Origin: an uncultured virus (IMG/VR IMGVR_UViG_3300017917_005385)
Taxonomy: Duplodnaviria; Heunggongvirae; Uroviricota; Caudoviricetes
IMG/VR virus record: IMGVR_UViG_3300017917_005385
DNA: 26,009 nt
Reading direction: 5' to 3' (one strand)
The notes under the pieces are model-generated. The model was not told where the DNA came from. It made no database searches and saw only the letters and a program-made list of their open reading frames with translations. The translations under genes and the position numbers were made by a program. Positions 548-24,802 of the stretch are shown piece by piece (positions within the stretch are counted from its first letter, which is position 1; every line of letters begins with the position of its first letter).

Positions 548-1227
548 AAAAAATAGGTTTATTAATTATTGCAACAAATAAGTATGTTGATTTTTTACAT
601 ACATTAATTTCCAGTGCAGATAATTATTTTCTACCCAATCAAGATGTTACTTATTTTATATTCACGAATCAAGATTTAGATATTGAATCTAAAAGAAATA
701 TTGTTAGAATAGAAACTGAACATAAGTCTTGGCCCTGGATGACACTTGGTAGATATAAAATATTCACTCAAAACTCTGATATACTTTCAAATATGGACTA
801 TCTATATTACTGTGATGCTGATATGAGATTTGAGGGATTGGTATCTGATGAAGTTTTAGGTGATTTAGTTGCAACTCAACATCATGGTTATTGTGGAAAA
901 AGAGGTACACCAGAAATGAGACCATTCTCTACCGCATTTGTTAGACCCGATGAAGATATGCAATATTTTGCTGGGGGATTTAATGGAGGTAAGTCATATA
1001 ATTATTTAGAGATGGCTAAAGTATTATCTAATAATATAGATATAGATTTTTCAAATAATATTATTGCTGTATGGCATGATGAAAGTCACATCAATAGATA
1101 TTTTATAGATAATAAACCTACTAAAATTTTGAGTCCAAGTTATTGCTTCTATGAACATATAGAAGATCCAAGGTTTGAAAGAAAATTACTGGCTTTACAA
1201 AAAAATCACAGTGAAATAAGAAATTAA
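544..1227 (+). CDS. Family 6 glycosyltransferase (ABO/alpha-1,3-GalNAc/Gal-transferase-like)
   Basis: GT6 motifs IATNKY, YFIFT, DYLYYCDADM (DxD), YFAGGFNGG and AVWHDESHINRY, followed by LSPSYC. Confidence 0.9.
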   Translation: MKKIGLLIIATNKYVDFLHTLISSADNYFLPNQDVTYFIFTNQDLDIESKRNIVRIETEHKSWPWMTLGRYKIFTQNSDILSNMDYLYYCDADMRFEGLVSDEVLGDLVATQHHGYCGKRGTPEMRPFSTAFVRPDEDMQYFAGGFNGGKSYNYLEMAKVLSNNIDIDFSNNIIAVWHDESHINRYFIDNKPTKILSPSYCFYEHIEDPRFERKLLALQKNHSEIRN

Positions 1228-1260
1228 TATTTCTTTAAATAAAAATAAATTAATTAATAA

Positions 1261-1923
1261 ATGAAGATTGGCGTAGTTTTTTTCCATTCAGATATACAAA
1301 AGATTTATAAGGATAGATGGATTAAAAAGTCTGTTGAATCTATATTAAATCAGACTTATAAAGATTTTTCAATATATGAGATAAATTATTCAAGTGAGAA
1401 TGAAAATTTTTCTGTAGTTGGCGATGAAGTTAATAAAAAGTTCTGGTCAAAAAAAATGTCAAATTACGCTGAAGCTATGAATTTTATAATTACAGAAGCT
1501 TTTCTAGATGGTTGTGATTACGTTTTTAATACAAATCTAGATGATTATTATGATAAATATAGATTTGAGTCTCAGTTAAATTTGATGAAAGTACATGACT
1601 TTGATATACTCAGTTCTGATTTTTGTTATATAGTTGAGAATATTAACAATGAGGATGAAATTTCTCTTTATATGAATATTACAAAATTTGGAGATATTAA
1701 ATTTAATTTGTTTAACTCAAATAATGTAATTGCTCATCCATGTGTTTGTTATAGTAAAAGATTCTGGAATGACCCTCAAAATAGATATGATACATCAAAG
1801 GTTCCTGAAGAAGACTATGACTTGTGGAAAAGGTCAATATTAAGAGGTTATAAATTTGGCATTGATAAAAACTTACTTCTTTATTATAGAAGACATAATA
1901 ATCAAGTAAGTGAAAAAAAATAA
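1261..1923 (+). CDS. Family 2 (GT-A) glycosyltransferase
   Basis: SVESILNQTYKDF, NLDDYY..RFESQL, HP, EDYDLW and LLYYRRH motifs. Confidence 0.8.
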   Translation: MKIGVVFFHSDIQKIYKDRWIKKSVESILNQTYKDFSIYEINYSSENENFSVVGDEVNKKFWSKKMSNYAEAMNFIITEAFLDGCDYVFNTNLDDYYDKYRFESQLNLMKVHDFDILSSDFCYIVENINNEDEISLYMNITKFGDIKFNLFNSNNVIAHPCVCYSKRFWNDPQNRYDTSKVPEEDYDLWKRSILRGYKFGIDKNLLLYYRRHNNQVSEKK

Positions 1924-1932
1924 AAAAAGAAA

Positions 1933-2553
1933 ATGAGTTTAAGTTATTTTGATTATGATTCACTACAAAAATGGTTTGGTGATAATGGTGATAAAACACA
2001 TAGATTAAACTACGAATTGAATGAAGATTCTGTAGTTTTTGATTTAGGTGGATTTGAAGGTGGTTGGTCTGCTGATATCGTAGAAAAGTTTAATTGTAAT
2101 GTTTACATATTTGAACCTGTACAGGTTTATTATGAAAAAATAGTAGATAGATTTAAATCTAATAGTAAAGTTAGAGCTTTTAACATTGGTTTATGTAATA
2201 AAAATGAACTTGTAGATATATTTTATAATGGTGATTCATCATCAATGATTTTCAAAACATCAACCGTTGAAAAAATTCAAATTAAAAATATTTGTGATTT
2301 TTTAGATGATATTAAAATAAATAAAATAGATCTTATAAAAATTAATATAGAAGGTGCCGAGTTTGACCTTTTAGATGAAATTATAAATCGAGGTTATCAA
2401 GATAAGTTTGATAATATACAAGTGCAATTTCATAAAATGTTTGATGATTGTTATGAGAGAAGAGATGCTATAAGAAAAAAACTATCCGAAACACACCATT
2501 TAACATATGATTATACATTTGTTTGGGAAAATTGGAAAAAAAATAATTTATGA
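1933..2553 (+). CDS. FkbM-family SAM-dependent methyltransferase
   Basis: VFDLGGFEG, IFEPV and IDLIKINIEGAE motifs. Confidence 0.85.
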   Translation: MSLSYFDYDSLQKWFGDNGDKTHRLNYELNEDSVVFDLGGFEGGWSADIVEKFNCNVYIFEPVQVYYEKIVDRFKSNSKVRAFNIGLCNKNELVDIFYNGDSSSMIFKTSTVEKIQIKNICDFLDDIKINKIDLIKINIEGAEFDLLDEIINRGYQDKFDNIQVQFHKMFDDCYERRDAIRKKLSETHHLTYDYTFVWENWKKNNL

Positions 2554-2554
2554 T

Positions 2555-3151
2555 ATGAAGTATTATTCACAAGCTGGACAAGATGAGTGGGTTGTTAACT
2601 TTTTTAAAAGTAAAAAAAATGGATATTTTTTAGATATTGGTGCTCATAATGGCATAGAGATAAATAACACTTATTATTTAGAAAAAAATTTAGACTGGTC
2701 AGGAATTTGTATAGAAGCAAATCCTTTAATTTTTGAAGAACTTAAAATAAATAGAAATTGTGATACTATAAATTGTGCAGTATCGGATTGTGTTGAAGAG
2801 TTAAATTTTATCATGGATGGATTAAGTGGTAGAATATCAAATAGTCAAGGAATTAAAATGATATCAAATACAATAGATAACATAATTAGAGAAAATAATG
2901 TTCCTAAAATAATTGATTATATAAGCTTAGATGTTGAGGGTTATGAGACTAAGGTTTTAAGTAAATTTCCATTTGATGATTATGAATTTGTATTAATGAC
3001 AGTTGAACATAATTTATATCTAGGTGATAGTTCTAACAAGGAAAATATTAAGAGTATACTATTAAATAACGGTTACGCTTTATATCAAGAAAATGTCAGT
3101 CATCAAAACTTTGAATTTGAAGATTGGTATATCAATAAAAAATATCTTTAA
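2555..3151 (+). CDS. FkbM-family SAM-dependent methyltransferase
   Basis: YSQAGQD, FLDIGAHNG, WSGICIEAN and IDYISLDVEG motifs. Start moved from 2507 to the ATG at 2555, directly after the upstream TGA. Confidence 0.85.
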   Translation: MKYYSQAGQDEWVVNFFKSKKNGYFLDIGAHNGIEINNTYYLEKNLDWSGICIEANPLIFEELKINRNCDTINCAVSDCVEELNFIMDGLSGRISNSQGIKMISNTIDNIIRENNVPKIIDYISLDVEGYETKVLSKFPFDDYEFVLMTVEHNLYLGDSSNKENIKSILLNNGYALYQENVSHQNFEFEDWYINKKYL

Positions 3152-3153
3152 TA

Positions 3154-3927
3154 ATGATAGTTACTAAAATACAAGGAGGACTAGCTAATCAGATATTTCA
3201 ATGGGCTTATGCTAAATCACTTGAGATTGATTATAAGGTTCCTATGATGTTAGATATATCTTATTATTATAAAGATAATGGTACAGATACAAAAAGAAGT
3301 TTTTGTTTAGATAAATTTCCTAATTTAAAATTTAATCTATTCGCTGGTAATGAAAGTTTTATAAATGTTTCAGATGATTCTTTTTTTAGAGAATTAAAAA
3401 TTGATACTAACTATAATTATTATTTGAGTGGTTTTTGGCAAAGTGATGAGTATTTTAAAAATAATAGAATTGAAATTCTGAAAGAATTATTACCAACCGA
3501 ATCAACAAAAAAAGAATTATTTAATTTATATCCATCTTTGAACTCAAATACAACTTCTATACATATAAGAAGAACTGATTATTTAAATTCAAACGGTTAT
3601 CATCCTGTTCAGACTATTGAATACTATGAAAAGGCAATTGAATTAGTTGGTAGTTATGACAATTTATTAATTTTTTCTGATGATATTAGTTGGTGTAAGA
3701 ATAATTTAGATTTTAGAAATATGATATTTATAGAAGGCAATGATGATATAATTGATTTATGGTTGATGTCTTTATGTAAAAATAATATAATCGCAAATAG
3801 CTCTTTTAGTTGGTGGGGTGCTTATTTGAATTTGAATAAAAATAAAAAAGTTATTGCACCATCACAATGGTATGGTCATTTTACTGGTAAAAAAAATACT
3901 TTACCAGAAGATTGGATAATAATATAA
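3154..3927 (+). CDS. Family 11 glycosyltransferase (alpha-1,2-fucosyltransferase-like)
   Basis: GGLANQIFQWA, GFWQS, SIHIRRTDY, FSDDISWC and IIANSSFSWWGAYL motifs. Confidence 0.92.
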   Translation: MIVTKIQGGLANQIFQWAYAKSLEIDYKVPMMLDISYYYKDNGTDTKRSFCLDKFPNLKFNLFAGNESFINVSDDSFFRELKIDTNYNYYLSGFWQSDEYFKNNRIEILKELLPTESTKKELFNLYPSLNSNTTSIHIRRTDYLNSNGYHPVQTIEYYEKAIELVGSYDNLLIFSDDISWCKNNLDFRNMIFIEGNDDIIDLWLMSLCKNNIIANSSFSWWGAYLNLNKNKKVIAPSQWYGHFTGKKNTLPEDWIII

Positions 3928-3937
3928 TAATAAAATT

Positions 3938-4753
3938 ATGATAGTAGTTAAGTTACAAGGTGGAATGGGTAATCAAATGTTTCAATACGCGGTTGCTAAA
4001 AGTTTATCAATTAAATATAATATTCCTTTTTTTATGGATAGAAATTACATTGATAAATTTGATTGGAGAAATTATGATTTAGATCTTTTTAATGTAGATG
4101 AGAATTTTATAATTAATCCTATTGAAGCAATTCCTGTAAATGATGGTGTTGGCTTATCATTTAACAATGAGATATATAATATTTTTGATAATATTCCACT
4201 AGAACAAAATATTTACTTAGAAGGTTATTTTCAAAATATAGGCTACACTGATCCTATTTATAATATTCTAAAGAAAGATTTTAAATTAAAAAATGATATA
4301 AATGATAATAGAAGTTTAGATTTATTAAATGAAATAAAATCTACTAATTCTGTTATGTTAAATGTTCGCAGAACAGACTTTGTTAATAGTAGTTTTCACG
4401 GAACAATGGATGTTGATTATTACAATAATGCTATTTCAATAATAAATGAAAAAGTCGAAAATCCTAAATACTTTATATTTTCAGATGATATTGAATGGTG
4501 TAAAGAAAATTTAAGTAATATAGATAATTCTTTTATTGTAGATCATTCTTATAAGGGTGATAGATTTGGTGAGTATTTAGAACTGATGAAAAATTGTAAA
4601 CATTTTATAATTCCAAATAGTTCATTTGCATGGTGGTCTGCTTACTTATGTGAGAATGAAAATAAAATAGTTATCGCACCTGAAAGATGGCTTTTAAATC
4701 AAAATTTAGATGTTGATGTAGTTAGTGAAAAATTAAATTGGATTAAAATATGA
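3938..4753 (+). CDS. Family 11 glycosyltransferase (alpha-1,2-fucosyltransferase-like), second paralogue
   Basis: GGMGNQMFQYA, GYFQ, NVRRTDF, FSDDIEWC and IIPNSSFAWWSAYL motifs. Confidence 0.92.
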   Translation: MIVVKLQGGMGNQMFQYAVAKSLSIKYNIPFFMDRNYIDKFDWRNYDLDLFNVDENFIINPIEAIPVNDGVGLSFNNEIYNIFDNIPLEQNIYLEGYFQNIGYTDPIYNILKKDFKLKNDINDNRSLDLLNEIKSTNSVMLNVRRTDFVNSSFHGTMDVDYYNNAISIINEKVENPKYFIFSDDIEWCKENLSNIDNSFIVDHSYKGDRFGEYLELMKNCKHFIIPNSSFAWWSAYLCENENKIVIAPERWLLNQNLDVDVVSEKLNWIKI

Positions 4754-5835
4754 AAATAGCAATTGTAACAGGGTCAGCTGGTCTAATAGGATCACAAGCC
4801 TGTGACTTCTTTAGTGAGAGAGGATATAAAATTATTGGTATAGATAACGATATGAGAGCTTATTTCTTTGGTGAGGGTTCTTCTACTAAAGATTCATTAG
4901 AGTCTCTTAAATCAAAAATAAATGACTATGAACACTATAATATAGATATCAGAGACTATCAAAAATTAAATGAAGTATTTAGTAAATACAAATCTGATAT
5001 TGATATTGTTATTCACACAGCGGCTCAACCATCTCATGATTGGGCGGCTAATGAACCTTTAACAGATTTTAGTATTAATGCCACAGGAACAATGAATATG
5101 TTAGAAGTAACAAGATTAAATTGTCCTAAAGCAACATTTATTTTTACCTCTACAAATAAAGTATATGGTGATACACCAAACTATTTAGATTTAATTGAGA
5201 CAGATACTAGATGGGAATTAAATAAAGAAACATTCAAATATAATCATTGTTTAGGAAGTGATGCTAGTATAAATGAAAATATGTCAATTGACAATACTAA
5301 ACACTCTGTATTTGGTGCTTCTAAAGTTGCAGCTGATATTATGTGCCAAGAGTATGGTAAATATTTTGGAATGAACGTTGGTATATTTAGAGGTGGTTGT
5401 TTAACAGGTCCTAATCACGCTGGTGCTGAATTGCACGGTTTTCTTTCTTATTTAGTTAAGTGTATTGTAAATGATAAACCATATACAATCTTTGGTTATA
5501 AGGGTAAACAAGTAAGAGATAACATACACTCTTGGGATTTAGTTAATATGTTTTGGCACTTTCATCAAAATCCAAAACAAGGCGAAGTTTATAATGCTGG
5601 TGGCGGTAGAGATAACTCTACTTCTATATTAGAAGCTATTGAAACAATTAATAGAATTGCTGGTACTAATTGGAATAACTATACTATATCAGAACAAAAT
5701 AGAATAGGTGATCATATTTGGTATATTTCTGATTTAAGAAAATTTAGAACTCACTACCCTGAATGGAATATAACTATTAGTTTAGAAGAAACCATTAAAC
5801 AGATGGTAGATTTTGAAAAAAATAAAGTAAAGTAA
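4750..5835 (+). CDS. NAD-dependent epimerase/dehydratase (extended SDR, CDP-paratose 2-epimerase-like)
   Basis: TGSAGLIG Rossmann motif, plus AAQPSHD, STNKVYG, FGASK and GKQVRDNIH. Confidence 0.85.
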   Translation: MKIAIVTGSAGLIGSQACDFFSERGYKIIGIDNDMRAYFFGEGSSTKDSLESLKSKINDYEHYNIDIRDYQKLNEVFSKYKSDIDIVIHTAAQPSHDWAANEPLTDFSINATGTMNMLEVTRLNCPKATFIFTSTNKVYGDTPNYLDLIETDTRWELNKETFKYNHCLGSDASINENMSIDNTKHSVFGASKVAADIMCQEYGKYFGMNVGIFRGGCLTGPNHAGAELHGFLSYLVKCIVNDKPYTIFGYKGKQVRDNIHSWDLVNMFWHFHQNPKQGEVYNAGGGRDNSTSILEAIETINRIAGTNWNNYTISEQNRIGDHIWYISDLRKFRTHYPEWNITISLEETIKQMVDFEKNKVK

Positions 5836-6684
5836 ATGAACGTAATTTCAATTTTAATAAGTGGTAGAGATTTTAAACAACCATATTCATTAAATGATAA
5901 ATCGCCAAATAATAGCACAGGTTTATGTAATCAACTTTTTCACTTTATAAATAGTGTTAGTATGTATAGTTTAGAAAATGATGTTTACTTTGATTTTTTC
6001 AGTAAAGACTATAGATCTGGTGATCTGCTAAAACTTTCAGATATTTTAGATATTCAAAAAATGAAAAGTCTTTATAATTGGAGAATAAATGATTTAATTG
6101 AATTTGAAGGTGTTAATTATACCATATTTAGAATTGGTGGTGTGTTTATGACATATAATTCTGATGTTAATAAATTTATTGATATAACTAAAAAAATTAT
6201 TTTTAATGACAAATATGAATTACTTTCTAAAAAAGTTATTGATAGTATGTCTCTAAATGAAGAAGAAGTAAACCTTGTTCATTTAAGAATTGATCATGAC
6301 GCTGAAGATCATATTTCAAGGCATGTCTCGAAGTCTGCTTTTGAGAGTTATATAAATTCATACAAACGTGAAATATTAAAAAATTGTTCAACTGATAAAA
6401 AATTGGTATTGCTATTAGAAGATATTAATCATCCCTTAGTTAAAGAACTATCTAGTATCTATAATGTTGTTTACTTTTCAAAAGATTTGATTTTAGAAAC
6501 ATACAATTCAATGTATGATGATAAAGTATTAGATGGTAGAGAAATGTATGCTTTAATTGATTTATTAATTGGTAAAAACTTGAAGGTGGATACCTATATA
6601 TGTGCCGAAGGAGGAGTATTTACTAGTTCATTTAGTATTTTATTAAAACATCTAAATCAGTATAAAAAAATAATAACTATATGA
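5836..6684 (+). CDS. Putative GDP-fucose-dependent O-fucosyltransferase-like (GT-B) protein
   Basis: GLCNQL near the N-terminus, HLRID, and C-terminal ALID...SSFS, the motif order shared by fucosyltransferase families. Lies within the glycan island. Confidence 0.55.
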   Translation: MNVISILISGRDFKQPYSLNDKSPNNSTGLCNQLFHFINSVSMYSLENDVYFDFFSKDYRSGDLLKLSDILDIQKMKSLYNWRINDLIEFEGVNYTIFRIGGVFMTYNSDVNKFIDITKKIIFNDKYELLSKKVIDSMSLNEEEVNLVHLRIDHDAEDHISRHVSKSAFESYINSYKREILKNCSTDKKLVLLLEDINHPLVKELSSIYNVVYFSKDLILETYNSMYDDKVLDGREMYALIDLLIGKNLKVDTYICAEGGVFTSSFSILLKHLNQYKKIITI

Positions 6685-8132
6685 TTAAAGATAAAGACAT
6701 TGTATTTGTAACAACCACTTTACATACTAAATGGTTAAATTATCAAAAGAGAATAATTAAGAATTTATTTCCAGATAGTCAACACATTATAGTTGATGGT
6801 AGAGGAAATTGGCCCAATTCCTGGTTCTATTGGATAGACGAAGTTAAGAAATGTGAACAAAAATATTTTGTTCATATAGATGAAGATTTTTTCATAACAT
6901 CAAAAGATGAGTTTATGAAAGTTTTTGATAAAATAGAATCAGAAGGATTAGACTTAGTAGGTTGTTCAGATGGTTATCATCATTTTAGAGGAGCTAATCC
7001 AGTTGCTATTAATACATTTCTAATGTATGGTAAAGTAGAACATGTTAAAATGATAGAAACTGATCTAAAAAATCTTAAATATGATATGGTCTCATTTGAT
7101 GGTTTATATCATTGGAGAAATAGTGCTGATATAAAGATGAAAGAATCATATAAAGATGAATTTAATTATGAGCATAAAATTTTAGGTAGTGGTAATTTTA
7201 ACTGTGAGCAAGAACCTTATTACTCTTTTCTTTGGTCTATGAAAGACTTAGGTTGTAAATTTGGATATTTATATCCAAATTTTGACACAAAGTATAAGTC
7301 AACTAATCCTAGATTGAGTGAGAACTCTGAGGATATTGGAATACATATGTGGTATACAAGACAATGGAATCAAGAATTTGATGTGTGGGGAATGCCTAAC
7401 AAAGCTAGATATGAAGAAGTTGAAAAGATGTTATTAAATAACAAAAAGATAAATATTTATATTAATGTGGCTATAACAGGCAGTGTTAATTATGTATTAG
7501 CAGATCTTATAAATTCTATAATAAAAAGTGGTTTATATTCTGCTTGTAATCAAATATTTTTAATATTGAATGGTGATATTAGAAATATAAGTTTAAATCT
7601 AAATCTACCTAAAATTAAATTAGTATTTGAAAGTCAAGATATATCCAAGTGTGAGTTTCCAACCTTAAATAAAATATGGCTAGATTGTCAAGATAATGAT
7701 ATAACTGTTTTGTATTTACATACAAAAGGTGTTACAAAGCCAGGTAATCAAATGATTAAAGATTGGACAGACTATCTAATTCATTTCAATATCTTAAATT
7801 GGCAAGATAGATTTTTTGAGTTGAATAATAACGACTGCACTGGTGTTAATTTAGGTGGTAACTCTGAAGATATTAACGAAAGACCTGAAACATGGGGATA
7901 TGGAAAAGCTCCTTTACATTATAGTGGTAACTTTTGGTGGTCTACATCATCTCATATTAAAAAATTACCTGAACCATATAAGTGGTTACCAGATAATAAT
8001 TATTTAAAATGGAGAGTTATGGCTGAAATGTGGTTGTGTCAAGTATCTGATGCTAACTACAATTGTGTTTGGAAGTCAAATGTTAATCATTATGTTGAAA
8101 ATTATCCACCTGAATTGTATAAAAATGTTTAA
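6681..8132 (+). CDS. Two-domain putative glycosyltransferase
   Basis: N-terminal GT-A-like domain with HIDEDFF (DxD). The second domain, from about aa 256, has LYLHTKG, HYSGNFWW and AEMWL. Last gene of the glycan operon. Confidence 0.55.
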   Translation: MIKDKDIVFVTTTLHTKWLNYQKRIIKNLFPDSQHIIVDGRGNWPNSWFYWIDEVKKCEQKYFVHIDEDFFITSKDEFMKVFDKIESEGLDLVGCSDGYHHFRGANPVAINTFLMYGKVEHVKMIETDLKNLKYDMVSFDGLYHWRNSADIKMKESYKDEFNYEHKILGSGNFNCEQEPYYSFLWSMKDLGCKFGYLYPNFDTKYKSTNPRLSENSEDIGIHMWYTRQWNQEFDVWGMPNKARYEEVEKMLLNNKKINIYINVAITGSVNYVLADLINSIIKSGLYSACNQIFLILNGDIRNISLNLNLPKIKLVFESQDISKCEFPTLNKIWLDCQDNDITVLYLHTKGVTKPGNQMIKDWTDYLIHFNILNWQDRFFELNNNDCTGVNLGGNSEDINERPETWGYGKAPLHYSGNFWWSTSSHIKKLPEPYKWLPDNNYLKWRVMAEMWLCQVSDANYNCVWKSNVNHYVENYPPELYKNV

Positions 8133-12287: not shown

Positions 12288-13256
12288 TTAAAGGTCATTG
12301 AAAAAATCATCTTCGTCTTCAGTAGCAGAAGCAGTTGTTGCTGGGCTACCAGAGAAGTTATCTTCAAAGTCAAAGTCATCAGAAGATGGTTTTGATTCTG
12401 GTTTATTTGAGAACGAAGAAGAAGCTTTACCAGTTAAGAAGTTTGAAATCTCAGTGATTTTAGCTTGTTGCTCTTCACTTAAACGCTTAGCAGCAAATTC
12501 TTCTAAGTCGTGTTCACGATCCATTAAGAAGTCTTTAATCTTACCTTGTACAGAAGCATCAATTTGACCATCTGAATTCAAAGGAGCGTTTTTGAAAGCG
12601 CCTTTTTCTTTGAAGTAAATAGGAAGTGATGTAGCTTCTGGTTTGAACATACTCATTTTGTAATCAGGGTAAGTTTCATCACCAGTTTGGATTTCTTTTA
12701 CTACAAGTACGAAATCTTTACCAGCTTTCAAGTCGAATACGTTACAAGATACACCAGAGATTTCTCCATTCTTTTCAGCTTGAATCTTATCTTTGATAGT
12801 CTTACCGTATTGGAAAATCATAATCTTACCAACTAATTCAGGTTGTTGTTCGTCTTCAATAACCAATACATAAGAATAGTATTTCTTAGAGTATTTTAAT
12901 TGTTTTGATTTTTCAATTAAGATTGCATTTTTTGAATTCTGCATTGTGTAGTATAAGTCAGTCAAAGGACACTTCTCATTGAAGTTCTTTGGACTATCAA
13001 ACCAACCAGAAAGTTCTTTTGGATTTTTGATATCAACATAGTGAGTAATTTTTTCAATTGCTGACTGTCCAACTTTACCATCTTTGGTTAAGTTCGGAAG
13101 GAATCTTACTACTGATCTCCATCCTTTCTTTTTGTCTTTACATTTTGCAAGATCTACACGGTAAATACCGTCATTACTTGTGCTTGATTTTTGGTCGTTA
13201 AGGAAGTCCATCTTGCTGTCTAAACCGCCATTAAATAAATCATCTAATTCTGCCAT
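12288..13256 (-). CDS. T4 gp32-like single-stranded DNA-binding protein
   Basis: VRFLP, CPL, YYSYVLVIED..PELVGKIMIFQYGKTIKDKI, VFDL..GKDF and YPDY..S.F, with an S/D-rich acidic tail ending DDFFNDL. Confidence 0.88.
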   Translation of the reverse strand: MAELDDLFNGGLDSKMDFLNDQKSSTSNDGIYRVDLAKCKDKKKGWRSVVRFLPNLTKDGKVGQSAIEKITHYVDIKNPKELSGWFDSPKNFNEKCPLTDLYYTMQNSKNAILIEKSKQLKYSKKYYSYVLVIEDEQQPELVGKIMIFQYGKTIKDKIQAEKNGEISGVSCNVFDLKAGKDFVLVVKEIQTGDETYPDYKMSMFKPEATSLPIYFKEKGAFKNAPLNSDGQIDASVQGKIKDFLMDREHDLEEFAAKRLSEEQQAKITEISNFLTGKASSSFSNKPESKPSSDDFDFEDNFSGSPATTASATEDEDDFFNDL

Positions 13257-13416: not shown

Positions 13417-14310
13417 TTAGAAGTTCAATAAAATCTTTATTGAATAGTCATAAATGTCATTATTAGTAAATAATCTATCACCTCTTGAGTGATCAAAAAT
13501 AACTTCTTCATAGTCAAGAGATGGTAAAATAGACTCTAAAGTTTCATCAATATGTGATTCTAATTCAATAAGATCCATTTTACCTGTTCTGATAGAATCA
13601 GAATGACCACCAATTTCTATATCAACACAAGGTCTATACATATCAAGTATTTTATCAATTGAGTATTTCTCTTTTTTTGATATATCACTTTGAGTTATAA
13701 GAATTGATTTGCCAGACTCACCTTCGAACCTAGCACCTGATTTAATACCAAACTCTTCATAATCTTTGATATTGAAATTCTGACATTGCCATTTTGGTTC
13801 AGTTACATAATAACTCTCATCACTTTGTCTCAAAAAATAACTGGGATAACTACCAATTCTGAAAGTAGGAAAAACTATCTCTTTTATAATATGAATTATT
13901 ATTCTTAATCTATCTCTATCATCCATTTTAACAACTGAAATCAAACCGTTATATCTATTTTTGTTTGGATTATCGTATCTATCCACATCACCATAAGCAA
14001 TACAACGAATAACATATTTATCTTTACCTGAAGGTATTTGATCATAAACATCATACATTCTTAAATGTATTTCTTCAGTATCTACCTTTCTAATAGCGTC
14101 AAACATTCTATCAACCAATGACTCAATCTTTTCAAACCAACCTTCACCAATAAAATGGTCAGACCATTTCTTAATAGAAGATGGTGTTACTGATTGGCTT
14201 TTAGACCAATTAGGACTATTCCATTCCCAAGATTTTAGGTCTTCTATCCAATCATGAATACCATATTTTTGAGATGACTCAAATGTTTTATACTTACTTA
14301 TGTATTTCAT
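13417..14310 (-). CDS. Hypothetical protein with an N-terminal MKYISKYKTFES leader
   Basis: 297-aa ORF. The leader is shared with neighbouring genes. Confidence 0.75.
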   Translation of the reverse strand: MKYISKYKTFESSQKYGIHDWIEDLKSWEWNSPNWSKSQSVTPSSIKKWSDHFIGEGWFEKIESLVDRMFDAIRKVDTEEIHLRMYDVYDQIPSGKDKYVIRCIAYGDVDRYDNPNKNRYNGLISVVKMDDRDRLRIIIHIIKEIVFPTFRIGSYPSYFLRQSDESYYVTEPKWQCQNFNIKDYEEFGIKSGARFEGESGKSILITQSDISKKEKYSIDKILDMYRPCVDIEIGGHSDSIRTGKMDLIELESHIDETLESILPSLDYEEVIFDHSRGDRLFTNNDIYDYSIKILLNF

Positions 14311-15638
14311 TACTTACTTGCTTTGATGACTTTAATTCTTTCTAGTTGATACTTCATAATATCAACCTCTTGATTCTGTTTTAAGAAGTCAACTATCTTT
14401 TGATACATTTGAATTGTAATTCTACAATCTGTTAAGGCATCATGATAGTTTGTCATATTTATTCCAAGAGCTGGCCCTACTTTAGACATAGATGAAGATA
14501 TCAAGCCACCATCTCTTTCTGACTTACCAATAAAGTTTACCATATCTTGATACTTAGAATCTGTCTCAGCTAATGCTTGTAAAAGAGGTAAGTAATATAA
14601 TTGAATTAACATCTTAGTATCAAATACTTCATTATTAATTTTGTGACCATATCTACCAGATAACATAGCCATATCAAAGCCAGCATTTTGTGCTATGTAT
14701 AAACAAGGTTCATAATTACTAATCCAATCAAAGAATTGGTCTAATATTTCTTGTTCATTTTTATATTTGAATTTACCAGAACCATAATGATTGAATCCTA
14801 ATACCCATTTAGTTTTATCACTAGGGTCTTTAAATTTAGATTTAGTTTCATCTGTTAATTTAATTTTCTCATCAAACAATCCTAATTCTTTGAATGTGTT
14901 TGAGTTAAAGTTATAATCAGTTGCTAAACAAGAAACTTGTGTTAATTGTTGTTTCTTAGGACCACCTAATCCAGTCGTTTCAGTATCTATCCACAACCAA
15001 GGCATATTTGATTTAGATTCTAACCATTCTAATATTTGTGGAATTGTTTTATACCACATCTTATTTTCGTTTAGTGATTCAATAATGCCTTTATTATAAT
15101 CAAATTCAGTTTTTGAACCATCAGCCATTGAATAAGTTATCTTGTTAACATTTTTAACCTCATACTTATAATCTGGCTTAACATATTTTTTACCCGTTCC
15201 TTTTTTAACATAAGCTATTGTAATATGTGGTTTGTAATCAGGAAATTGGTCTGAGTTAGGAAATTTAGATAACTCATCATGTAAATGTTGTAAAGCACCA
15301 TCTGGTATTACATTAAATTTAACAACATCAAATTTATCGTTTTTTTCAAATATACCAACACCATCTACTTTAATATTAATATCATCAGAATAGTTTTCAA
15401 ATACAGATTTAACCATTTCAGGTGTTACATCATCATGTAAACCATATAATATAGTAACGTGCGGATTTTCTTGAATTCCCTTAGGATCGTCATTTTCATC
15501 ACCGTAAAATATATCTTCAGGATCAATAGATGATGTTATCTCATTCCAGTTACTAACAGGAATCTCAACCATTACACAGCCATATTTATGACCGTTAATT
15601 GATTCTTTTAAAAATTGTATGTAGTTTTTAATTATCAT
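14310..15638 (-). CDS. Fusion of a 2H phosphoesterase (Acb1/T4 gp57B-like) and a DEDDh 3'-5' exonuclease
   Basis: Two HxT motifs (PHVTILYG, FPDYKPHITIAY) in aa ~18-180. ExoI IDTETTG, ExoII AQNAGFD and ExoIII HDALTD in aa ~213-420. Leader MIIKNYIQFLKES. Confidence 0.85.
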   Translation of the reverse strand: MIIKNYIQFLKESINGHKYGCVMVEIPVSNWNEITSSIDPEDIFYGDENDDPKGIQENPHVTILYGLHDDVTPEMVKSVFENYSDDINIKVDGVGIFEKNDKFDVVKFNVIPDGALQHLHDELSKFPNSDQFPDYKPHITIAYVKKGTGKKYVKPDYKYEVKNVNKITYSMADGSKTEFDYNKGIIESLNENKMWYKTIPQILEWLESKSNMPWLWIDTETTGLGGPKKQQLTQVSCLATDYNFNSNTFKELGLFDEKIKLTDETKSKFKDPSDKTKWVLGFNHYGSGKFKYKNEQEILDQFFDWISNYEPCLYIAQNAGFDMAMLSGRYGHKINNEVFDTKMLIQLYYLPLLQALAETDSKYQDMVNFIGKSERDGGLISSSMSKVGPALGINMTNYHDALTDCRITIQMYQKIVDFLKQNQEVDIMKYQLERIKVIKASK

Positions 15639-16531
15639 ATTCTACCTTGTATTATTATCCTTTTTTCACCACCTAAGTTATTATATGAGAATTTGAAATC
15701 AAGTCCTGTTTCTTCTTGTAATCTTTTTAAGGCAATCATAAAATCTTGAAATTCTTCATTTTCTTCTCCACTTTTATCTTCCCAAGAAATTTCACCGTTA
15801 GAATCCATTGAACCTGTAAACTCAAATCTTTTTTTGTTTGTGTGAATATATTCATCTTCTCTTTCCTTCATTATATACTTGAAGTGAGGCATTGGATGAT
15901 ATGATAAACGATCAACCGAATAACCTTCAGACCAATACCAATCATTATCTTCAAACTCTTGAAAACAATCTTTTACTGAGTCAAGAACTTGTTGATAGAT
16001 TTGTTGTTCCATATCAACACTTTCAAATGTCTTAATTTTATATTTGGGGTTCTTAGCCCATATTTCCCAGTTACCATCTTCAGAAGCATTAAAATAAACT
16101 TCTTCTGCTGATACTATTTCTTTTTTATCTTCATCTTCAATCTCATGAAAATAAGCAACATCAAAAGGATTGTAAGTTATCTTAACCATTTCACTAGTAT
16201 CACTATTAGTTGGAACAACAACACCAGAAACACCGGCAATTAATATTCTTTTATCACTTTGTTTAATTGTTTCAGCACCTGATTCGGATGTTTGAAAGAA
16301 AATAGGTTCTGATAAACGAACTTCATTTGTGTATTTACCAGCTAAACCAGCTTTTCTACCAGATGGACTTGTATCATAAATACCTATCATTCCATTCCAA
16401 CCATTATTACGATGAGTTCTATTTGTGTGAAACCAAAGTTTCTGACCAACTAAGTCGTTAGCGTCAATATATCCCTCAAGATCTTTTCTTGAGTTATAAT
16501 AAACTTCTTCATATTTTTTAAGATACTTCAT
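15635..16531 (-). CDS. Hypothetical two-module protein with MKYLKKYEE leader and an internal KYKIKTFES copy
   Basis: 298-aa ORF. A leader-like motif recurs at aa 163-171. Confidence 0.75.
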   Translation of the reverse strand: MKYLKKYEEVYYNSRKDLEGYIDANDLVGQKLWFHTNRTHRNNGWNGMIGIYDTSPSGRKAGLAGKYTNEVRLSEPIFFQTSESGAETIKQSDKRILIAGVSGVVVPTNSDTSEMVKITYNPFDVAYFHEIEDEDKKEIVSAEEVYFNASEDGNWEIWAKNPKYKIKTFESVDMEQQIYQQVLDSVKDCFQEFEDNDWYWSEGYSVDRLSYHPMPHFKYIMKEREDEYIHTNKKRFEFTGSMDSNGEISWEDKSGEENEEFQDFMIALKRLQEETGLDFKFSYNNLGGEKRIIIQGRI

Positions 16532-16591: not shown

Positions 16592-16879
16592 TTATTCTTC
16601 TCTATGAATTAATTTAATTTCATCTTCCCAACCTTCTGGTAGTTCTTCCTCTTCTTCTACATCAAAGTCAAAGTCCATTCCAACTAGATAACTCATTACT
16701 GAACTTATCATAATATCATCAGCGCCTCTTTCTTTCATATAAGCTTCAAAGTCTTCTACTGTGAAGTAACCTTTTTCAGATTTTAATTTTTGCATTTCCG
16801 GTAATATACTTATAGCTATATCTTCATGTATATCAGAATCTATTTTACCATATGCTTCAAATGTTTTTAAGTATTTCAT
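16592..16879 (-). CDS. Small acidic hypothetical protein with MKYLKTFE leader
   Basis: 95-aa ORF with an A-rich upstream region and the shared leader. Confidence 0.75.
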   Translation of the reverse strand: MKYLKTFEAYGKIDSDIHEDIAISILPEMQKLKSEKGYFTVEDFEAYMKERGADDIMISSVMSYLVGMDFDFDVEEEEELPEGWEDEIKLIHREE

Positions 16880-16894
16880 AAATGTTAATTATTT

Positions 16895-17380
16895 TTATAG
16901 ACCAAAGAAACTGTGGTCATCAGAATCAGAGTTTTCTCTCATATGTTTTATTTCAGCATCTGTTAGATTGTGAATAGCCCACTTAGCACCGTTTATAAAA
17001 GCGGCATTTTTAGTCATAGTCCCAAAAGCTTTAAGACTATAAGCAGCATCTTGAATTTTAGATTCAATATCTTCTATATTTAAAGTAGGTGTTTCTTCAG
17101 TCTCCATAGCTTCTTCGTCTCTTAAAGTTTCATCTAAGATAATTTGCAAGAAGTTATTAGGGTCAGATATACGACCACTATTAATTACTTGTTGAAGTTC
17201 TTCTGATGTAAAAGTCATCTCATTACATAAGTCGCCTAATTCAGAAAGAATATCACTGTTAGAAGGTTGGTCACCTTCTTCTAATTCACTTTCATCGTAG
17301 TTGATAATAGTATTAGCAAGCTTTATAAACTCTTCAATTCTATCAAGTGATGTCTCGTTAAATTTCTTTAAGTATTTCAT
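16895..17380 (-). CDS. Acidic hypothetical protein with MKYLKKFNE leader
   Basis: 161-aa ORF with the shared leader. Confidence 0.75.
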   Translation of the reverse strand: MKYLKKFNETSLDRIEEFIKLANTIINYDESELEEGDQPSNSDILSELGDLCNEMTFTSEELQQVINSGRISDPNNFLQIILDETLRDEEAMETEETPTLNIEDIESKIQDAAYSLKAFGTMTKNAAFINGAKWAIHNLTDAEIKHMRENSDSDDHSFFGL

Positions 17381-17951: not shown

Positions 17952-18383
17952 ATAATTTTGTATGAAATCGCTGCATATTCCTTTACACTCACTTATATCA
18001 TCATCATATATTTCAGGCATAACAGATATGCTATTTTTCACTGGTTGTTTTCCCGGATATACCCAAATATACTTTTTAGATGTTATCGTTAAAGTATCTT
18101 CTTGGTGCCAAAAAAAATTAATATCATATCCACAATCACTGAAATATGATATAGCTTCTACATTTTTACAGTGAACCCATAACTTTGATAATCTATCTCT
18201 AAACCATCTAAAGTCCACACCATAATTTGGCTTATCATGTCCAAGATATAAAAAACCATCTACAAACCAAACATCAACCTCTACATCATAACCATCTTTA
18301 ATGGCTTTATCAATATAAGTTGGTTCATTCTCCCAAGATTCAAGACGACCATTTATGTTTCCTCTATGTGATATTAATATCAT
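17934..18383 (-). CDS. GDPD/PLC-like phosphodiesterase-family protein
   Basis: ISHRGN, EN, GYDVEVDVW, LGHD, WVHCKN and GICSD motifs. Confidence 0.75.
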   Translation of the reverse strand: MILISHRGNINGRLESWENEPTYIDKAIKDGYDVEVDVWFVDGFLYLGHDKPNYGVDFRWFRDRLSKLWVHCKNVEAISYFSDCGYDINFFWHQEDTLTITSKKYIWVYPGKQPVKNSISVMPEIYDDDISECKGICSDFIQNYKTTIN

Positions 18384-19741
18384 ACTTTATGGTTTTCTAA
18401 ATAATACTTCAAGTCTTCTGGAGTACCTAGTCCCCACATTTTTTCAACATCAAATATCTTAACTTTTCTACCCATTTCAATTGCTTGATTATAAACCGGG
18501 CAAACATAAAATTCATTATTAACTCTGATGTTTTTATCAATCATTTGTTCTGCACTTTTTACAAAATCAGAACCATGTTTCCAATAATAAAAACCAACCG
18601 TTGCGTTATCTGATATTGGATTTTTTTCAGCTACCTCAATTACTAAACCACTTTCATCTATTTTAGCAAAAGACCATTTAGGGTGAGTAGCTTTAAATGT
18701 AACAATACCACCATCACAATTTGACTCTTGCATTTTATACATAAACTCATTTGAGTCCCACTCTACAAACTGATCAGAGTTAGCAAAGAAAAGAGGATTG
18801 TCATTATTTATATATTCTTTTGCTGTTAAGGCGGTACAGGCAGCACCTTCAGTAAGACCATCTACCTCAACAATTTTACAACCAGGTGTAATTAGATTTA
18901 ATAATGTATCTAAGTTATATTTCTCACGATGAGATTTTTGAACAACAAAAATAAAATTAGCATCAATGTTTAAATTTTCAACCACAACTTGAATCATTGG
19001 TTTACCATTTACTTCAATTAGTGGTTTAGGAAAAGTATAACCAGCTTGTTCAAATCTTGAACCGGCACCTGCCATTGGTATTAAAACATTCATTTTTTCG
19101 TTTTTCCATTTTGGTGTAGTTGAAATCATATTATTTGATATAGTTTTAATTTTATTTTTAATATTATTATATGTTACTTCTTTTGGTGAAACAACTCTCA
19201 TAACATTAGAGTTACTTCTTGATGCTGCTAATAAACCATATGGTGAATCCTCAATAATCAAAGTTTGTTCTGGTAAACAACTCATCATAGAGATTGCTTT
19301 CCAATACATTTCTGGATGAGGTTTGCTATTTTTAACATCTTCATTTGAAATTATTAAATCAATAAATTCAATAATTCCTAATTTAGATAAAACTGTTAAA
19401 ACTGTTTTTCTTATACTATTTGAACATACAGCAATTTTATAGCCATCTTTAGATAGATTATTTAGACAATCAATTAAATTTTTATCTTGATTTAAACTAG
19501 AAAGCTCTTGTAGAGTATATCTTTGTTTTTCCTCCCATACTTTATCATATAAATCTTTAGGTAAGCCTTTATCTTTAGATAACATCTCAAGCTTTTGAGT
19601 AGTTTTTAAACCATCATACTTACTTAAATGTTCTTCCCAAGAAATTGAGTATTTACCTAAGGCTTTATTTAAAGTATTAAAATGTATTTCTTTTGCCTCT
19701 ACTAAAACTCCATCTAAATCAAAAATAACTAATTTTATCAT
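18380..19741 (-). CDS. HAD-family phosphatase fused to a sugar-phosphate nucleotidyltransferase-like domain
   Basis: N-terminal DLDGVL, CSNS, KPHPE and IEDS. C-terminal IPMAGAGSRF...PKPLI, EGAACT, VAEK and GLGTPEDL. Confidence 0.88.
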   Translation of the reverse strand: MIKLVIFDLDGVLVEAKEIHFNTLNKALGKYSISWEEHLSKYDGLKTTQKLEMLSKDKGLPKDLYDKVWEEKQRYTLQELSSLNQDKNLIDCLNNLSKDGYKIAVCSNSIRKTVLTVLSKLGIIEFIDLIISNEDVKNSKPHPEMYWKAISMMSCLPEQTLIIEDSPYGLLAASRSNSNVMRVVSPKEVTYNNIKNKIKTISNNMISTTPKWKNEKMNVLIPMAGAGSRFEQAGYTFPKPLIEVNGKPMIQVVVENLNIDANFIFVVQKSHREKYNLDTLLNLITPGCKIVEVDGLTEGAACTALTAKEYINNDNPLFFANSDQFVEWDSNEFMYKMQESNCDGGIVTFKATHPKWSFAKIDESGLVIEVAEKNPISDNATVGFYYWKHGSDFVKSAEQMIDKNIRVNNEFYVCPVYNQAIEMGRKVKIFDVEKMWGLGTPEDLKYYLENHKV

Positions 19742-19744
19742 AAA

Positions 19745-20701
19745 TTAAAAGTCATCATCTAGATTATCAAAATCAATAGCTTTATCAGATACTTTTTGAT
19801 ACTCAGCAACTCTCTTTTCAAAGAAGTTAGTTTTACCTTGAAGAGAAATCATATCCATGAAGTCAAATGGATTCTCAACATTGTAAACCTTAGGACAACC
19901 TAAAGCACTCATCCAGAAGTCAGCAACATACTCAATATATTGTTGCATTAAGTTTGAGTTCATACCAATTAAAGATACTGGTAAAGATTCAGTGATAAAC
20001 TCTCTCTCGATATCAACAGCTGATGTGATGATTTCTTGTATTCTTTCAATTGAAACTTTATTTTGTACATATCTATTATGTAATAAACAAGCAAACTGAC
20101 AGTGCAATCCTTCATCTCTTGAAATTAACTCATTAGAGAATGTTAAACCTGGCATCAAACCTCTTTTCTTTAACCAAAAAATAGAACAAAATGAACCAGA
20201 GAAGAAGATACCTTCAACTGCGGCAAATGCGATTAATCTCTCAGCAAAAGATTCAGAATTAATCCACTTTAAAGCCCATTCGGCTTTTTTCATAATTGAT
20301 GGAAAGTTATCAATTGCATGAAATAATTTATCTTTTTCAGCTGAATCTTTGATATAAGTATCAATTAAAAGAGAATATGTTTCTGAGTGAATGTTCTCCA
20401 TCATAATTTGAAACCCATAAAATGATTTTGCTTCTGGATATTGAACCTCTTTCAAAAAATTCTCAGCTAAATTTTCATTAACAATACCGTCTGATGCTGC
20501 AAAGAAAGCCAAAATCATTTTAATGAAATGTCTTTCATTGTCATTTAACTTTTCATTCCAATCTGTTAAATCTTGAGCCAAATCAATCTCTTCTGCTGTC
20601 CAGAATGAGTGCTGGCAGTTTTTGTACATGTCCCAAATATCGTGATATTTTAAGGGAAACATTACAAATCTGTCTTTGTTTTCTTGTAGTATGTGTTCCA
20701 T
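19745..20701 (-). CDS. nrdB: Ribonucleotide reductase class Ia beta (R2) subunit
   Basis: [49 protein letters not shown] and KTNFFEKRV motifs. Confidence 0.96.
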
Positions 20702-23302: not shown

Positions 23303-24322
23303 ATGAAATTTGACTGGAATGATGTTTCAATTGTACCTGAAACACTAAGCACAATTGCGTCTAGAAAAGAAATTAATCCTTACTACAATGGTAAGCTGCC
23401 TCTTTTCACCGCACCAATGGATAAAGTTATTGATGATACTAATTTAAGTGAATTTGTTAATAACAATATCAATGTCTGCTTACCAAGACACGTCAAGTTT
23501 GATAATATAGAAAGTAGTGATGATTTTTTCTTTTCTTATGGTCTTGATGAAATAATTGGTATTATACAGACCGGTGGTAGAGTACCTAAGAGAGTTTTAA
23601 TTGATGTGGCTAATGGTCACATGATGAAACTTTATGAAACATCTAAGATGATTAAAGAGAAGTTTGGTGATAGCGTAGAGCTAATGATAGGTAACATCGC
23701 CAATCCCGATACATACCGGGAGTATTGCAAGATTGGTGTCGATTATATAAGAGTTGGTATTGGTGGAGGTTCGGCTTGTACGACCTCTGCCAATGTCTCA
23801 ATTCACTATCCAATGGGTTCATTGATAAGTGAATGTGCTCAGATTAAAAAAGAATTTGAAAATCCTACTAAGATTATTGCTGACGGTGGTTTCAAAAACT
23901 TCTCTGATATTATTAAAGCTTTGGCACTCGGTGCTGACTATGTAATGTTAGGAGGTGTTTTTAATAAATCACTTGAAAGTTGCGGTGAAACATTCTTAAA
24001 AGATGCTCAAGACCAATACTATGTAGTTGATATGGATAGAGCCAAAGTATCATTTGAAGCTGGTATTTCTGTTTATAAATACTATCGTGGTATGTCAACT
24101 AAAGAAGTTCAAAAGTCTTGGAATAAACACGAATTAAAAACTGGTGAAGGTATTACTAAATATAATAAAGTAGAATATACTTTATCAGGTTGGTGTGAGA
24201 ACTTTACCGATTATTTGAAATCAGCAATGTCTTATACAAATAGTAGAAATCTTAAAGAATTTATTGGTGAGGTTAGGTATGAAATGATTACTCAGAACTC
24301 ATTTAATAGATTTAATAAGTAA
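23303..24322 (+). CDS. IMP dehydrogenase / GMP reductase family enzyme (no CBS domains)
   Basis: APMDKV, IDVANGH, GNIA, VGIGGGSACTT (catalytic Cys), IIADGG, KALALGADYVMLG, YRGMST and EG. IMPDH versus GMPR cannot be settled by eye. Confidence 0.9.
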   Translation: MKFDWNDVSIVPETLSTIASRKEINPYYNGKLPLFTAPMDKVIDDTNLSEFVNNNINVCLPRHVKFDNIESSDDFFFSYGLDEIIGIIQTGGRVPKRVLIDVANGHMMKLYETSKMIKEKFGDSVELMIGNIANPDTYREYCKIGVDYIRVGIGGGSACTTSANVSIHYPMGSLISECAQIKKEFENPTKIIADGGFKNFSDIIKALALGADYVMLGGVFNKSLESCGETFLKDAQDQYYVVDMDRAKVSFEAGISVYKYYRGMSTKEVQKSWNKHELKTGEGITKYNKVEYTLSGWCENFTDYLKSAMSYTNSRNLKEFIGEVRYEMITQNSFNRFNK

Positions 24323-24351: not shown

Positions 24352-24802
24352 ATTTTATATCTTTTAGTTTTTGTAACTCTTTTTCAAGGTTTTCAATTTT
24401 TGCTTCGTATTCTGATTTGTTAATTTTGATAGCATCATAAAAACCAGTTGTAAATAATTCTAAATTATTTTTAATTGTTGATGCTTTAATTCTAGCATGT
24501 AGTTTAGAAACGGCTTTAACCAAAACAATAGGACTTCCTATTTTTCTACCATAATCATCGGTATTATATAACTCATAAACATTCCACACATCAGTCATTG
24601 TTGGATTTGATACAGATAGATGATTAATTTCGGATATTCTTTTATCATAGTATTCAGTGTTTTTTGAAGATACGACTTTAGCACACCAAACTTTGAATTT
24701 CTCACCAAACTTTTCTAAGAATTCATTTACATCAGATTCAACATCAATTGGATCTTTATAATCTTCAGATTCAAATATTTTATAAGTATTTAAGTGTTTC
24801 AT
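24350..24802 (-). CDS. Hypothetical protein with MKHLNTYKIFES leader
   Basis: 150-aa ORF directly downstream of the neck gene, with the shared leader and a C-terminal coiled coil. Confidence 0.75.
   Translation of the reverse strand: MKHLNTYKIFESEDYKDPIDVESDVNEFLEKFGEKFKVWCAKVVSSKNTEYYDKRISEINHLSVSNPTMTDVWNVYELYNTDDYGRKIGSPIVLVKAVSKLHARIKASTIKNNLELFTTGFYDAIKINKSEYEAKIENLEKELQKLKDIK

Follow-up and report, generated by a model that had tools for sequence, protein, structure and literature searches.

The window is the whole 26,009-nt stretch of DNA listed in IMG/VR as record IMGVR_UViG_3300017917_005385, from an uncultured virus of the Caudoviricetes, and the gene described here is a minus-strand open reading frame (ORF) at 14310..15638. 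The ORF encodes a single protein of 442 amino acids in which a 2H phosphoesterase domain is joined through a short linker to a DEDDh exonuclease. The window is low in G+C (24–34% per kb) and reads as phage DNA. Its genes include a gp32-like single-stranded DNA-binding protein (SSB), the small subunit of ribonucleotide reductase (RNR), an S74-chaperone tail-fibre-like protein and a glycosyltransferase block; no tRNA genes were found within the window. The closest public relative is LR745206, a 634,780-bp assembly named 'uncultured phage', and genome-level checks were made on three related GenBank megaphage records, LR745206, LR756502 and LR756504. The features of the protein, all on the minus strand, are as follows.

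14310..15638, minus strand: whole ORF, 2H phosphoesterase, linker and DEDDh exonuclease; 442 amino acids and stop, ATG start
15603..15638, minus strand: N-terminal leader-like peptide MIIKNYIQFLKE, residues 1-12; helix 2-14 modelled at low confidence
15093..15587, minus strand: 2H phosphoesterase domain, residues ~18-182 (Pfam, fold, PHROG, hhalign)
15453..15461, minus strand: HxT motif 1, H60-V-T62; invariant in the ortholog alignment
15348..15350, minus strand: F97, invariant; aligned opposite the base-stacking W74 of T4 Acb1 (PMC9117128)
15219..15245, minus strand: HxT motif 2, F132-P-D-Y-K-P-H138-I-T140 (H138-I-T140 at 15219-15227); Acb1-like F/Y-x-D-Y-x-P-H-I-T signature
15063..15092, minus strand: disordered linker, residues 183-192, with IIE-S and LNE-N; predicted local distance difference test score (pLDDT) under 50
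14313..15062, minus strand: DEDDh (DnaQ-like) 3'-5' exonuclease domain, residues 193-442 (Pfam, fold)
14979..14987, minus strand: Exo I motif D218-T-E220 (DTE); invariant in the ortholog alignment
14673..14675, minus strand: Exo II aspartate D322 (in NAGFD); invariant in the ortholog alignment
14427..14444, minus strand: Exo III motif H399-x4-D404 (YHDALTD); invariant in the ortholog alignment

Both domains are recognized by Pfam on the 442-residue protein. The family 2_5_RNA_ligase2 (PF13563) covers residues ~50-160 with 41.3 bits (cut-off 27), and RNase_T (PF00929) covers residues 215-412 with 33 bits (cut-off 24). The AlphaFold2 model of the full protein shows two well-folded domains with a mean pLDDT of 84.7 and a predicted template modelling score (pTM) of 0.59; with a pTM this low, the model predicts no fixed position of one domain relative to the other. 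Residues 183-192 form the sole internal segment with pLDDT under 50. An earlier annotation made from the sequence alone (the first-pass annotation) had called GIIESLNE the linker, and these are residues 184-191 of this segment. It had also placed two HxT motifs at about 15441-15467 and 15210-15233, which are found at 15453-15461 and 15219-15227, and had seen a full DEDDh set in the same ORF, located here as D218, E220, D322, H399 and D404. The leader-like peptide that it proposed is present as a sequence feature. In an alignment of 36 fused orthologues with 51–97% identity, the four HxT residues and the five DEDDh residues are invariant, and invariance of all nine catalytic residues is far beyond chance expectation. 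Selection maintains the two modules as active enzymes. E191, K193 and M194 at the linker are also invariant in the 36 proteins, and the linker stretch of the fused protein corresponds to the N-terminus of stand-alone exonucleases.

The pairing of the two domains is real and common in related phages. A search over 5.8 billion proteins gave 520 matches, and the architecture was read on the best 120 clusters. The 2H Pfam domain (PF13563) and the exonuclease match occur together in 95 of these 120, in proteins of 361-747 amino acids, while the remaining 25 are exonuclease-only (258-409 amino acids). The fusion is thus not a one-off. A 97%-identical protein of 442 amino acids represents 42 member sequences, and LR745206 carries a fused orthologue of 438 amino acids with 71% identity. 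Longer fused forms of 540-750 amino acids (P0021, P0064 and P0068, and loci L049 and L050 at 5001-6707) have an extra domain of ~110-140 amino acids between 2H and exonuclease, which has no Pfam match; P0064 adds an N-terminal extension of ~190 amino acids.

The arrangement of the two modules changes from locus to locus. We examined 39 loci on IMG/VR viral contigs, which hold 25 distinct exonuclease sequences (several loci are near-duplicates), by ORF calling and hidden Markov model searches. The 2H module and the exonuclease form one fused ORF in 8/39 loci; in 9/39 the 2H gene lies directly upstream on the same strand with a gap or overlap of 20 nt or less, and in 3/39 it lies upstream with one ORF between. 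In total, 2H stands upstream of the exonuclease on the same strand in 20 of the 39. A maximum-likelihood tree built from these 25 distinct sequences shows at least 8 switches of arrangement, and its well-supported branches require at least 4 changes of the fused state. Loci L061 and L063 were omitted from this count as their pieces are under 200 amino acids. The tree sister of the gene in the window is L047 (91% identity), whose two halves are parted by a reverse-strand ORF. Locus L054 has the order RNR-beta, a 119-residue ORF, 2H, exonuclease, and L080 and L056 are collinear and near-identical to L054 yet have no 2H gene. These arrangements, and the collinear L054, L080 and L056 in particular, identify the exonuclease as a stable core gene and the 2H module as an accessory one. 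The 2H module is usually found just upstream of the exonuclease, and the two have been repeatedly joined and split off.

The exonuclease gene itself is broken in two loci. In L061 it is in three pieces, and in L063 it is interrupted by a GIY-YIG/NUMOD ORF at 5714-6433, a mobile-element-like insertion. A further insertion of this kind, a Cys-rich reverse-strand ORF of 253 or 261 amino acids, lies between 2H and exonuclease in L047 (4123-4884, minus strand) and L063 (4101-4886, minus strand). Neither the 253- nor the 261-residue ORF has a match in Pfam, and a homing-endonuclease label for them would be a guess. The GIY-YIG assignment of the ORF in L063 has support.

The 2H domain matches the Pfam Acb1 family (PF23474) with 27.1 bits in the whole protein and 29.5 bits as a domain alone, a small margin over the cut-off of 27. 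Its sole PHROG is phrog_755, which T4 Acb1 matches at 5.3e-68. Among 59 members of the 2H family, the Pfam Acb1 model is found in 50, LigT_PEase in 40 and the superfamily model in all 59. The similarity to T4 Acb1 by BLASTP is confined to short segments near the second motif (best 8/12), and since this single-sequence comparison yielded the second motif only, a comparison of family with family profiles was needed. By hhalign, the 2H family aligns with 18 Acb1 sequences, those of T4 and FBB1 included, with a probability of 96%, an E of 4.8e-9 and 81 columns. The alignment covers residues 56-146, and so both HxT motifs. F97 falls on W74 of Acb1 and F132 on F107, and both of these Acb1 residues stack on nucleobases (Hobbs et al. 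2022, PMC9117128). The second motif of T4, as quoted in the first-pass annotation, is correct: FDDYTPHITLSY, read from the T4 57B gene, is close to FPDYKPHITIAY in this protein, with 8/12 residues identical.

Modelled alone with 58 stand-alone homologues, the 2H domain reaches a pLDDT of 91.6 and a pTM of 0.86. In fold and in PDB profile it is equally near LigT, Usb1, plant cyclic phosphodiesterase and Acb1; the profile search gives PH0099 at 1.1e-4, 2fyh at 1.2e-4, Acb1 7t26 at 4e-4 and 9q2g at 1.2e-3, and the ranking by fold brings no separation of Acb1 from LigT or Usb1. The LigT/ThpR equivalog of NCBIfam (TIGR02258) scores 31.6 bits, under its cut-off of 65.7. The Acb1-like label given earlier to the domain stands on phrog_755, Pfam Acb1 and hhalign; fold and PDB profile do not set Acb1 apart from the other 2H enzymes. 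The nearest predicted viral structures are those of Maribacter phage Colly_1, a 1030-residue uncultured-phage protein and Tenacibaculum phage PTm1. The domain has no free C-terminal end, as it continues into the disordered linker and then the exonuclease.

The same 2H family is also found in polyvalent proteins, together with PolyA_pol (CCA-adding) in 10 of the 28 scanned and with ART-PolyVal in 4 of the 28, and in fusions with actinophage capsid-morphogenesis or structural proteins. In their section on 2H domains, Iyer et al. 2017 predict those of polyvalent proteins to be RNases or degraders of defence nucleotides (PMC5512222). By its profile matches the 2H domain is related to Acb1, and the family-level evidence leans to Acb1. 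Taken together, profile, PHROG and fold place it within the Acb1-containing phage 2H assemblage, where it would form a separate branch and not a demonstrated Acb1. This assemblage also takes in the stand-alone 2H proteins of Flavobacteriia phages and the 2H domains of polyvalent proteins.

The exonuclease has a complete D-E-D-D-H set in its Exo I, II and III motifs and passes the PF00929 cut-off. It is a generic DEDDh enzyme in which no subfamily stands out. The NCBIfam equivalogs for Orn, RNase T, epsilon and ExoI are not reached (Orn 16.3 against 106, dnaq 16.3 against 71.5, ExoI 18.9 against 260), and the fold comparison leaves Orn, epsilon, RNase T, ExoI and TREX tied. The first-pass annotation had noted that DEDDh enzymes include oligoribonuclease-type nucleases; these results do not place the domain with Orn over epsilon, RNase T, ExoI or TREX. 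Orthology with T4 DexA was rejected, as hhalign gives a probability of 0.5% and DexA belongs to phrog_255. A role as the proofreading subunit of a Pol III-type replicase was rejected as well: Pol III alpha is found in 0/3 relatives, and their family B polymerase has an exonuclease-domain ORF of its own, so that an extra proofreader is not obviously needed. This polymerase is apparently split in LR745206, with the exonuclease/N-terminal half in a 515-residue ORF and the polymerase half in a 476-residue ORF ~100 kb apart (130634-131950 and 233286-234311). LR756502 shows the same pattern.

The protein starts with MIIKNYIQFLKES, a variant of a peptide found at the head of many genes in these phages, and the near-canonical form MKYLKSYKLFEE occurs among the orthologues of the 442-residue protein. 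F9 and E12 are invariant in the 36 fused orthologues. The strict pattern M-K-Y-x-K-x-[FY] has 3 copies in the window with 0 expected, and 32, 23 and 25 copies in the three related genomes with 0-1 in the reversed control. In LR745206, all 32 strict sites start ORFs of 83-359 amino acids; Glu is found at position 8-14 in 32/32, directly or one residue after Phe, and the proteins are mostly acidic, with a Pfam match in 0/32. The copies in the window are as follows.

16511-16531, 16859-16879 and 17360-17380, minus strand: strict leader, M-K-Y-L-K-x-[FY]-(..)-E, starting unrelated ORFs
14290-14310 (MKYISKY) and 24782-24802 (MKHLNTY): leader variants

Many of the stand-alone 2H proteins carry the leader and others lack it, and this patchy occurrence marks it as an add-on outside the fold. 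Y6, F9, L10 and E12 are spaced in the same way as Y4, F7, I8 and E10 of MKTYQEFIAE, the capsid targeting sequence of T4 IPII/IPIII. In that sequence, positions 4 and 7 are reported to matter for targeting and positions 8 and 10 for processing (PMC9026906). The invariant LNE-N of the linker also matches the leader-like start of the stand-alone exonucleases, MKILKF..INE/NKMWYK (a slash marks the candidate cut here and below). The T4 prohead protease family (PF03420) scores 20.1-24.7 bits, below the cut-off of 27, in ORFs of 699-769 amino acids in the three relatives. By residue spacing, the N-terminus carries a leader like the T4 capsid targeting sequence, and this leader is abundant in these phages.

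Capsid loading and splitting by a protease are hypotheses drawn from motif resemblance. In such a scheme the Y-x-x-F-L-K-E peptide would act as a T4-like capsid targeting sequence and bring the protein inside the huge capsid. Cleavage by the head protease would follow at two invariant residues, after E12 (FLKE/S) and after E191 in the linker (LNE/N). A free Acb1-like phosphodiesterase and a free exonuclease would enter with the DNA, before any host signal, and through the fusion a single address tag would serve to load both enzymes. That the protein is such a pre-packaged, injected counter-defence cargo, released as two free enzymes by the head protease, we consider rather improbable.

The protein probably serves the phage against host defences that work via nucleotides or RNA. 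More specifically, and tentatively, we read the gene as a conserved core exonuclease to which an accessory counter-defence phosphodiesterase has been joined. A counter-defence phosphodiesterase fits the presence and absence of 2H between loci, the kinship with Acb1 and the recurrence of the family in polyvalent proteins; the substrates, the counter-defence role itself and the cooperation between the modules are what we infer. One chain carries two autonomous, catalytically intact nucleases. The N-terminal module is a metal-independent 2H phosphodiesterase, which would open cyclic oligonucleotide immune signals, or related 2',3'-cyclic-phosphate or 2'-5' species, by the Acb1 mechanism. The C-terminal module is a Mg-dependent DEDDh 3'-5' exonuclease, encoded by a core gene conserved in this megaphage lineage. 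Their substrates are most likely complementary: the 2H module would take cyclic or cyclic-phosphate species closed to an exonuclease, and linear molecules ending in a free 3'-OH would go to the exonuclease. Such a split of tasks is more plausible than a strict line of ring opening followed by digestion.

Several points weigh against a counter-defence phosphodiesterase working with the exonuclease. DEDDh exonucleases generally need a 3'-OH. The product of Acb1, G[3'-5']pAp[3'], formed via a cyclic phosphate intermediate, ends in a 3'-phosphate (Hobbs et al. 2022, PMC9117128). A two-step pipeline is therefore chemically awkward, and the strict ring-opening-then-exonuclease model put forward from the sequence alone conflicts with this GpAp product. 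The ligand contacts of Acb1 (T4 numbering) are the base-stacking aromatics Y12, W74, F107 and W147 and the adenine-contacting E141 (PMC9117128); Y12, E141, W147 and the flexible C-terminal lid, which in Acb1 closes over the ligand, fall outside the aligned residues 56-146. Among predicted viral structures in BFVD, proteins named Acb1 start at rank 26 (E 3.5e-5), behind the Colly_1 2H protein (2.3e-12) and further entries called cyclic phosphodiesterase or RNA ligase. The exonuclease stands without 2H in the fetched flank in 19/39 loci. In LR756502 the orthologous 2H and exonuclease genes (59% identity each) are ~410 kb apart, at ~64 kb and ~474 kb, and LR756504 carries 2H as two stand-alone genes, with nothing that matches the exonuclease half of this protein. 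Of 40 sources, 24 have the gp32-like SSB and 19 have RNR-beta in one block with the exonuclease. Lastly, the three relatives each have 2-5 ORFs of the RNA-ligase family (PF09414), AAA_33 kinases and a CCA-adding enzyme.

These ligase, kinase and CCA-adding genes make RNA repair a live alternative. Here both modules would heal and trim RNA 3' ends: the 2H module would hydrolyse the 2',3'-cyclic phosphate ends that metal-independent host ribonucleases (such as anticodon nucleases or HEPN effectors) produce, and the DEDDh module would strip the damaged terminal nucleotide or trim the 3' end to give a 3'-OH for RNA ligases or the CCA-adding enzyme. We judge this somewhat unlikely. The 2H domain does not reach the LigT/ThpR equivalog threshold, no RNA ligase lies beside the gene (the nearest in LR745206 is ~16 kb off), and Iyer et al. 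2017, where they treat such 2H domains, report that they were never found with RNA ligases (PMC5512222). Tpt1, the remover of the junction 2'-phosphate, is in 0/3 relatives, and ligation of the yeast or plant type was rejected on this ground; RtcB is likewise in 0/3 relatives.

Another explanation is that unrelated functions were joined through accidental adjacency. The exonuclease would then be a core enzyme of DNA metabolism, such as an SSB-linked single-stranded DNA exonuclease in replication, recombination or repair, or an enzyme of nucleotide salvage, and the 2H module a passenger without catalytic cooperation. However, the sources that share the SSB/RNR-beta block are close relatives, and their synteny is weak evidence for function. 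A proofreader is not obviously needed beside a family B polymerase that brings an exonuclease domain itself, the exonuclease is no T4 DexA orthologue, and fused forms in which neither active site is damaged persist over the whole range of 97% to 51% identity. We consider a passenger doubtful. An assembly artefact, frameshift read-through or one-off chimera is already refuted: nothing was found for it, though some relatives have the parts as separate ORFs, and the same architecture recurs in dozens of independent clusters from JGI, ENA, NCBI and Logan, in the 634-kb GenBank phage assembly at 71% identity and as a single fused ORF in eight IMG/VR loci.

Around the gene, the upstream neighbour at 15635-16531 (minus strand) has a strict leader and a domain resembling mycobacteriophage L5 gp82 (PF25735, 33.4 bits), with a 4-nt overlap between its stop and the beginning of the 2H-exonuclease gene. 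The gp32-like SSB at 12288-13256 (minus strand) ends in an acidic-aromatic tip, ..EDEDDFFNDL. The RNR small subunit at 19745-20701 adjoins a gene at 18380-19741 (minus strand) in which a HAD hydrolase (HAD_2, 1.1e-31) is fused to a sugar-nucleotidyltransferase (NTP_transferase, 5e-10). The plus-strand block at 544-8132 is devoted to glycan synthesis, with GT6, GT2, two FkbM methyltransferases, two GT11 fucosyltransferase-like genes, an NAD-dependent epimerase/dehydratase and two ORFs without Pfam match. An IMPDH/GMP-reductase-family gene (4.8e-41) is found at 23303-24322 (plus strand), beside small ORFs without Pfam match.

The first-pass annotation knew of no characterised example of the fusion, and our literature search for a fusion of an Acb1/2H phosphoesterase with a DEDDh/DnaQ exonuclease, or for the leader, found no published description in the texts it covered. 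The section on 2H domains in Iyer et al. 2017 makes no mention of a pairing with a DEDDh exonuclease (PMC5512222). JGI records already label the combination automatically as '2'-5' RNA ligase/DNA polymerase III epsilon subunit-like protein'. The coupling of a DEDDh exonuclease with a 2H enzyme related to Acb1 appears to be new to the literature, though already auto-annotated.

Acb1-type enzymes are the best-understood phage means of destroying the signals of cyclic oligonucleotide-based anti-phage signalling systems (CBASS), and only small stand-alone forms have been studied. The proteins described here form a large conserved family of hundreds of metagenome clusters. In this family of the largest known phages, a 2H domain akin to Acb1 is linked to a DEDDh exonuclease, either fused with it or as its neighbour. 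If the modules cooperate, they would offer a new two-enzyme route to clear immune nucleotides or to repair damaged RNA ends. If the protein is loaded into capsids, megaphages would deliver anti-signalling enzymes along with their DNA. The presence and absence of 2H between near-identical genomes is a natural experiment that could link 2H to host defence repertoires. We regard the interest of the fusion as moderate in itself and higher if capsid delivery or catalytic cooperation proves true.

Compared with known systems, the protein shares with Acb1 (T4 gp57B; Erwinia phage FBB1, PDB 7T26/7T27; PF23474) the 2H fold, the HxT/HxT tetrad, phrog_755, the second motif F/Y-x-D-Y-x-P-H-I-T-[IL]-[AS]-Y and aromatics at the W74 and F107 positions. 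It differs from Acb1 in its N-terminal leader helix and C-terminal exonuclease. The closest named relatives are the stand-alone 2H proteins of Maribacter phage Colly_1/Molly and Tenacibaculum phage PTm1, with ~35% identity by tblastn; for Colly_1, Foldseek gives an E of 2.3e-12 and a TM of 0.70/0.79. These Flavobacteriia phage proteins are annotated '2'-5' RNA ligase superfamily' and have neither exonuclease nor leader. LigT/ThpR (TIGR02258; PDB 1VDX, 5LDM) lacks the PDY-x-PHIT signature. Relative to ExoI, Pol III epsilon, the PolC exonuclease, RNase T, TREX1/2 and Orn, the exonuclease here has extra segments and, at its N-terminus, the conserved helix NENKMWYKTIP. The leader shares with the capsid targeting sequence of T4 IPI-III its place as an extreme N-terminal peptide common to unrelated proteins of one phage, and the form M-K..Y-x-x-F-[IL]-x-E followed by a small residue. 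It differs from the T4 case in that the protease-family matches in the relatives are sub-threshold and most of the proteins with the strict motif are acidic. The 2H domains of polyvalent proteins (Iyer et al. 2017, PMC5512222) belong to the same family, which is joined elsewhere to other conflict-related domains, namely a CCA-adding enzyme, ART-PolyVal, RES and MuF-like capsid morphogenesis proteins, whereas the partner here is one DEDDh exonuclease, a conserved core gene in its own right.

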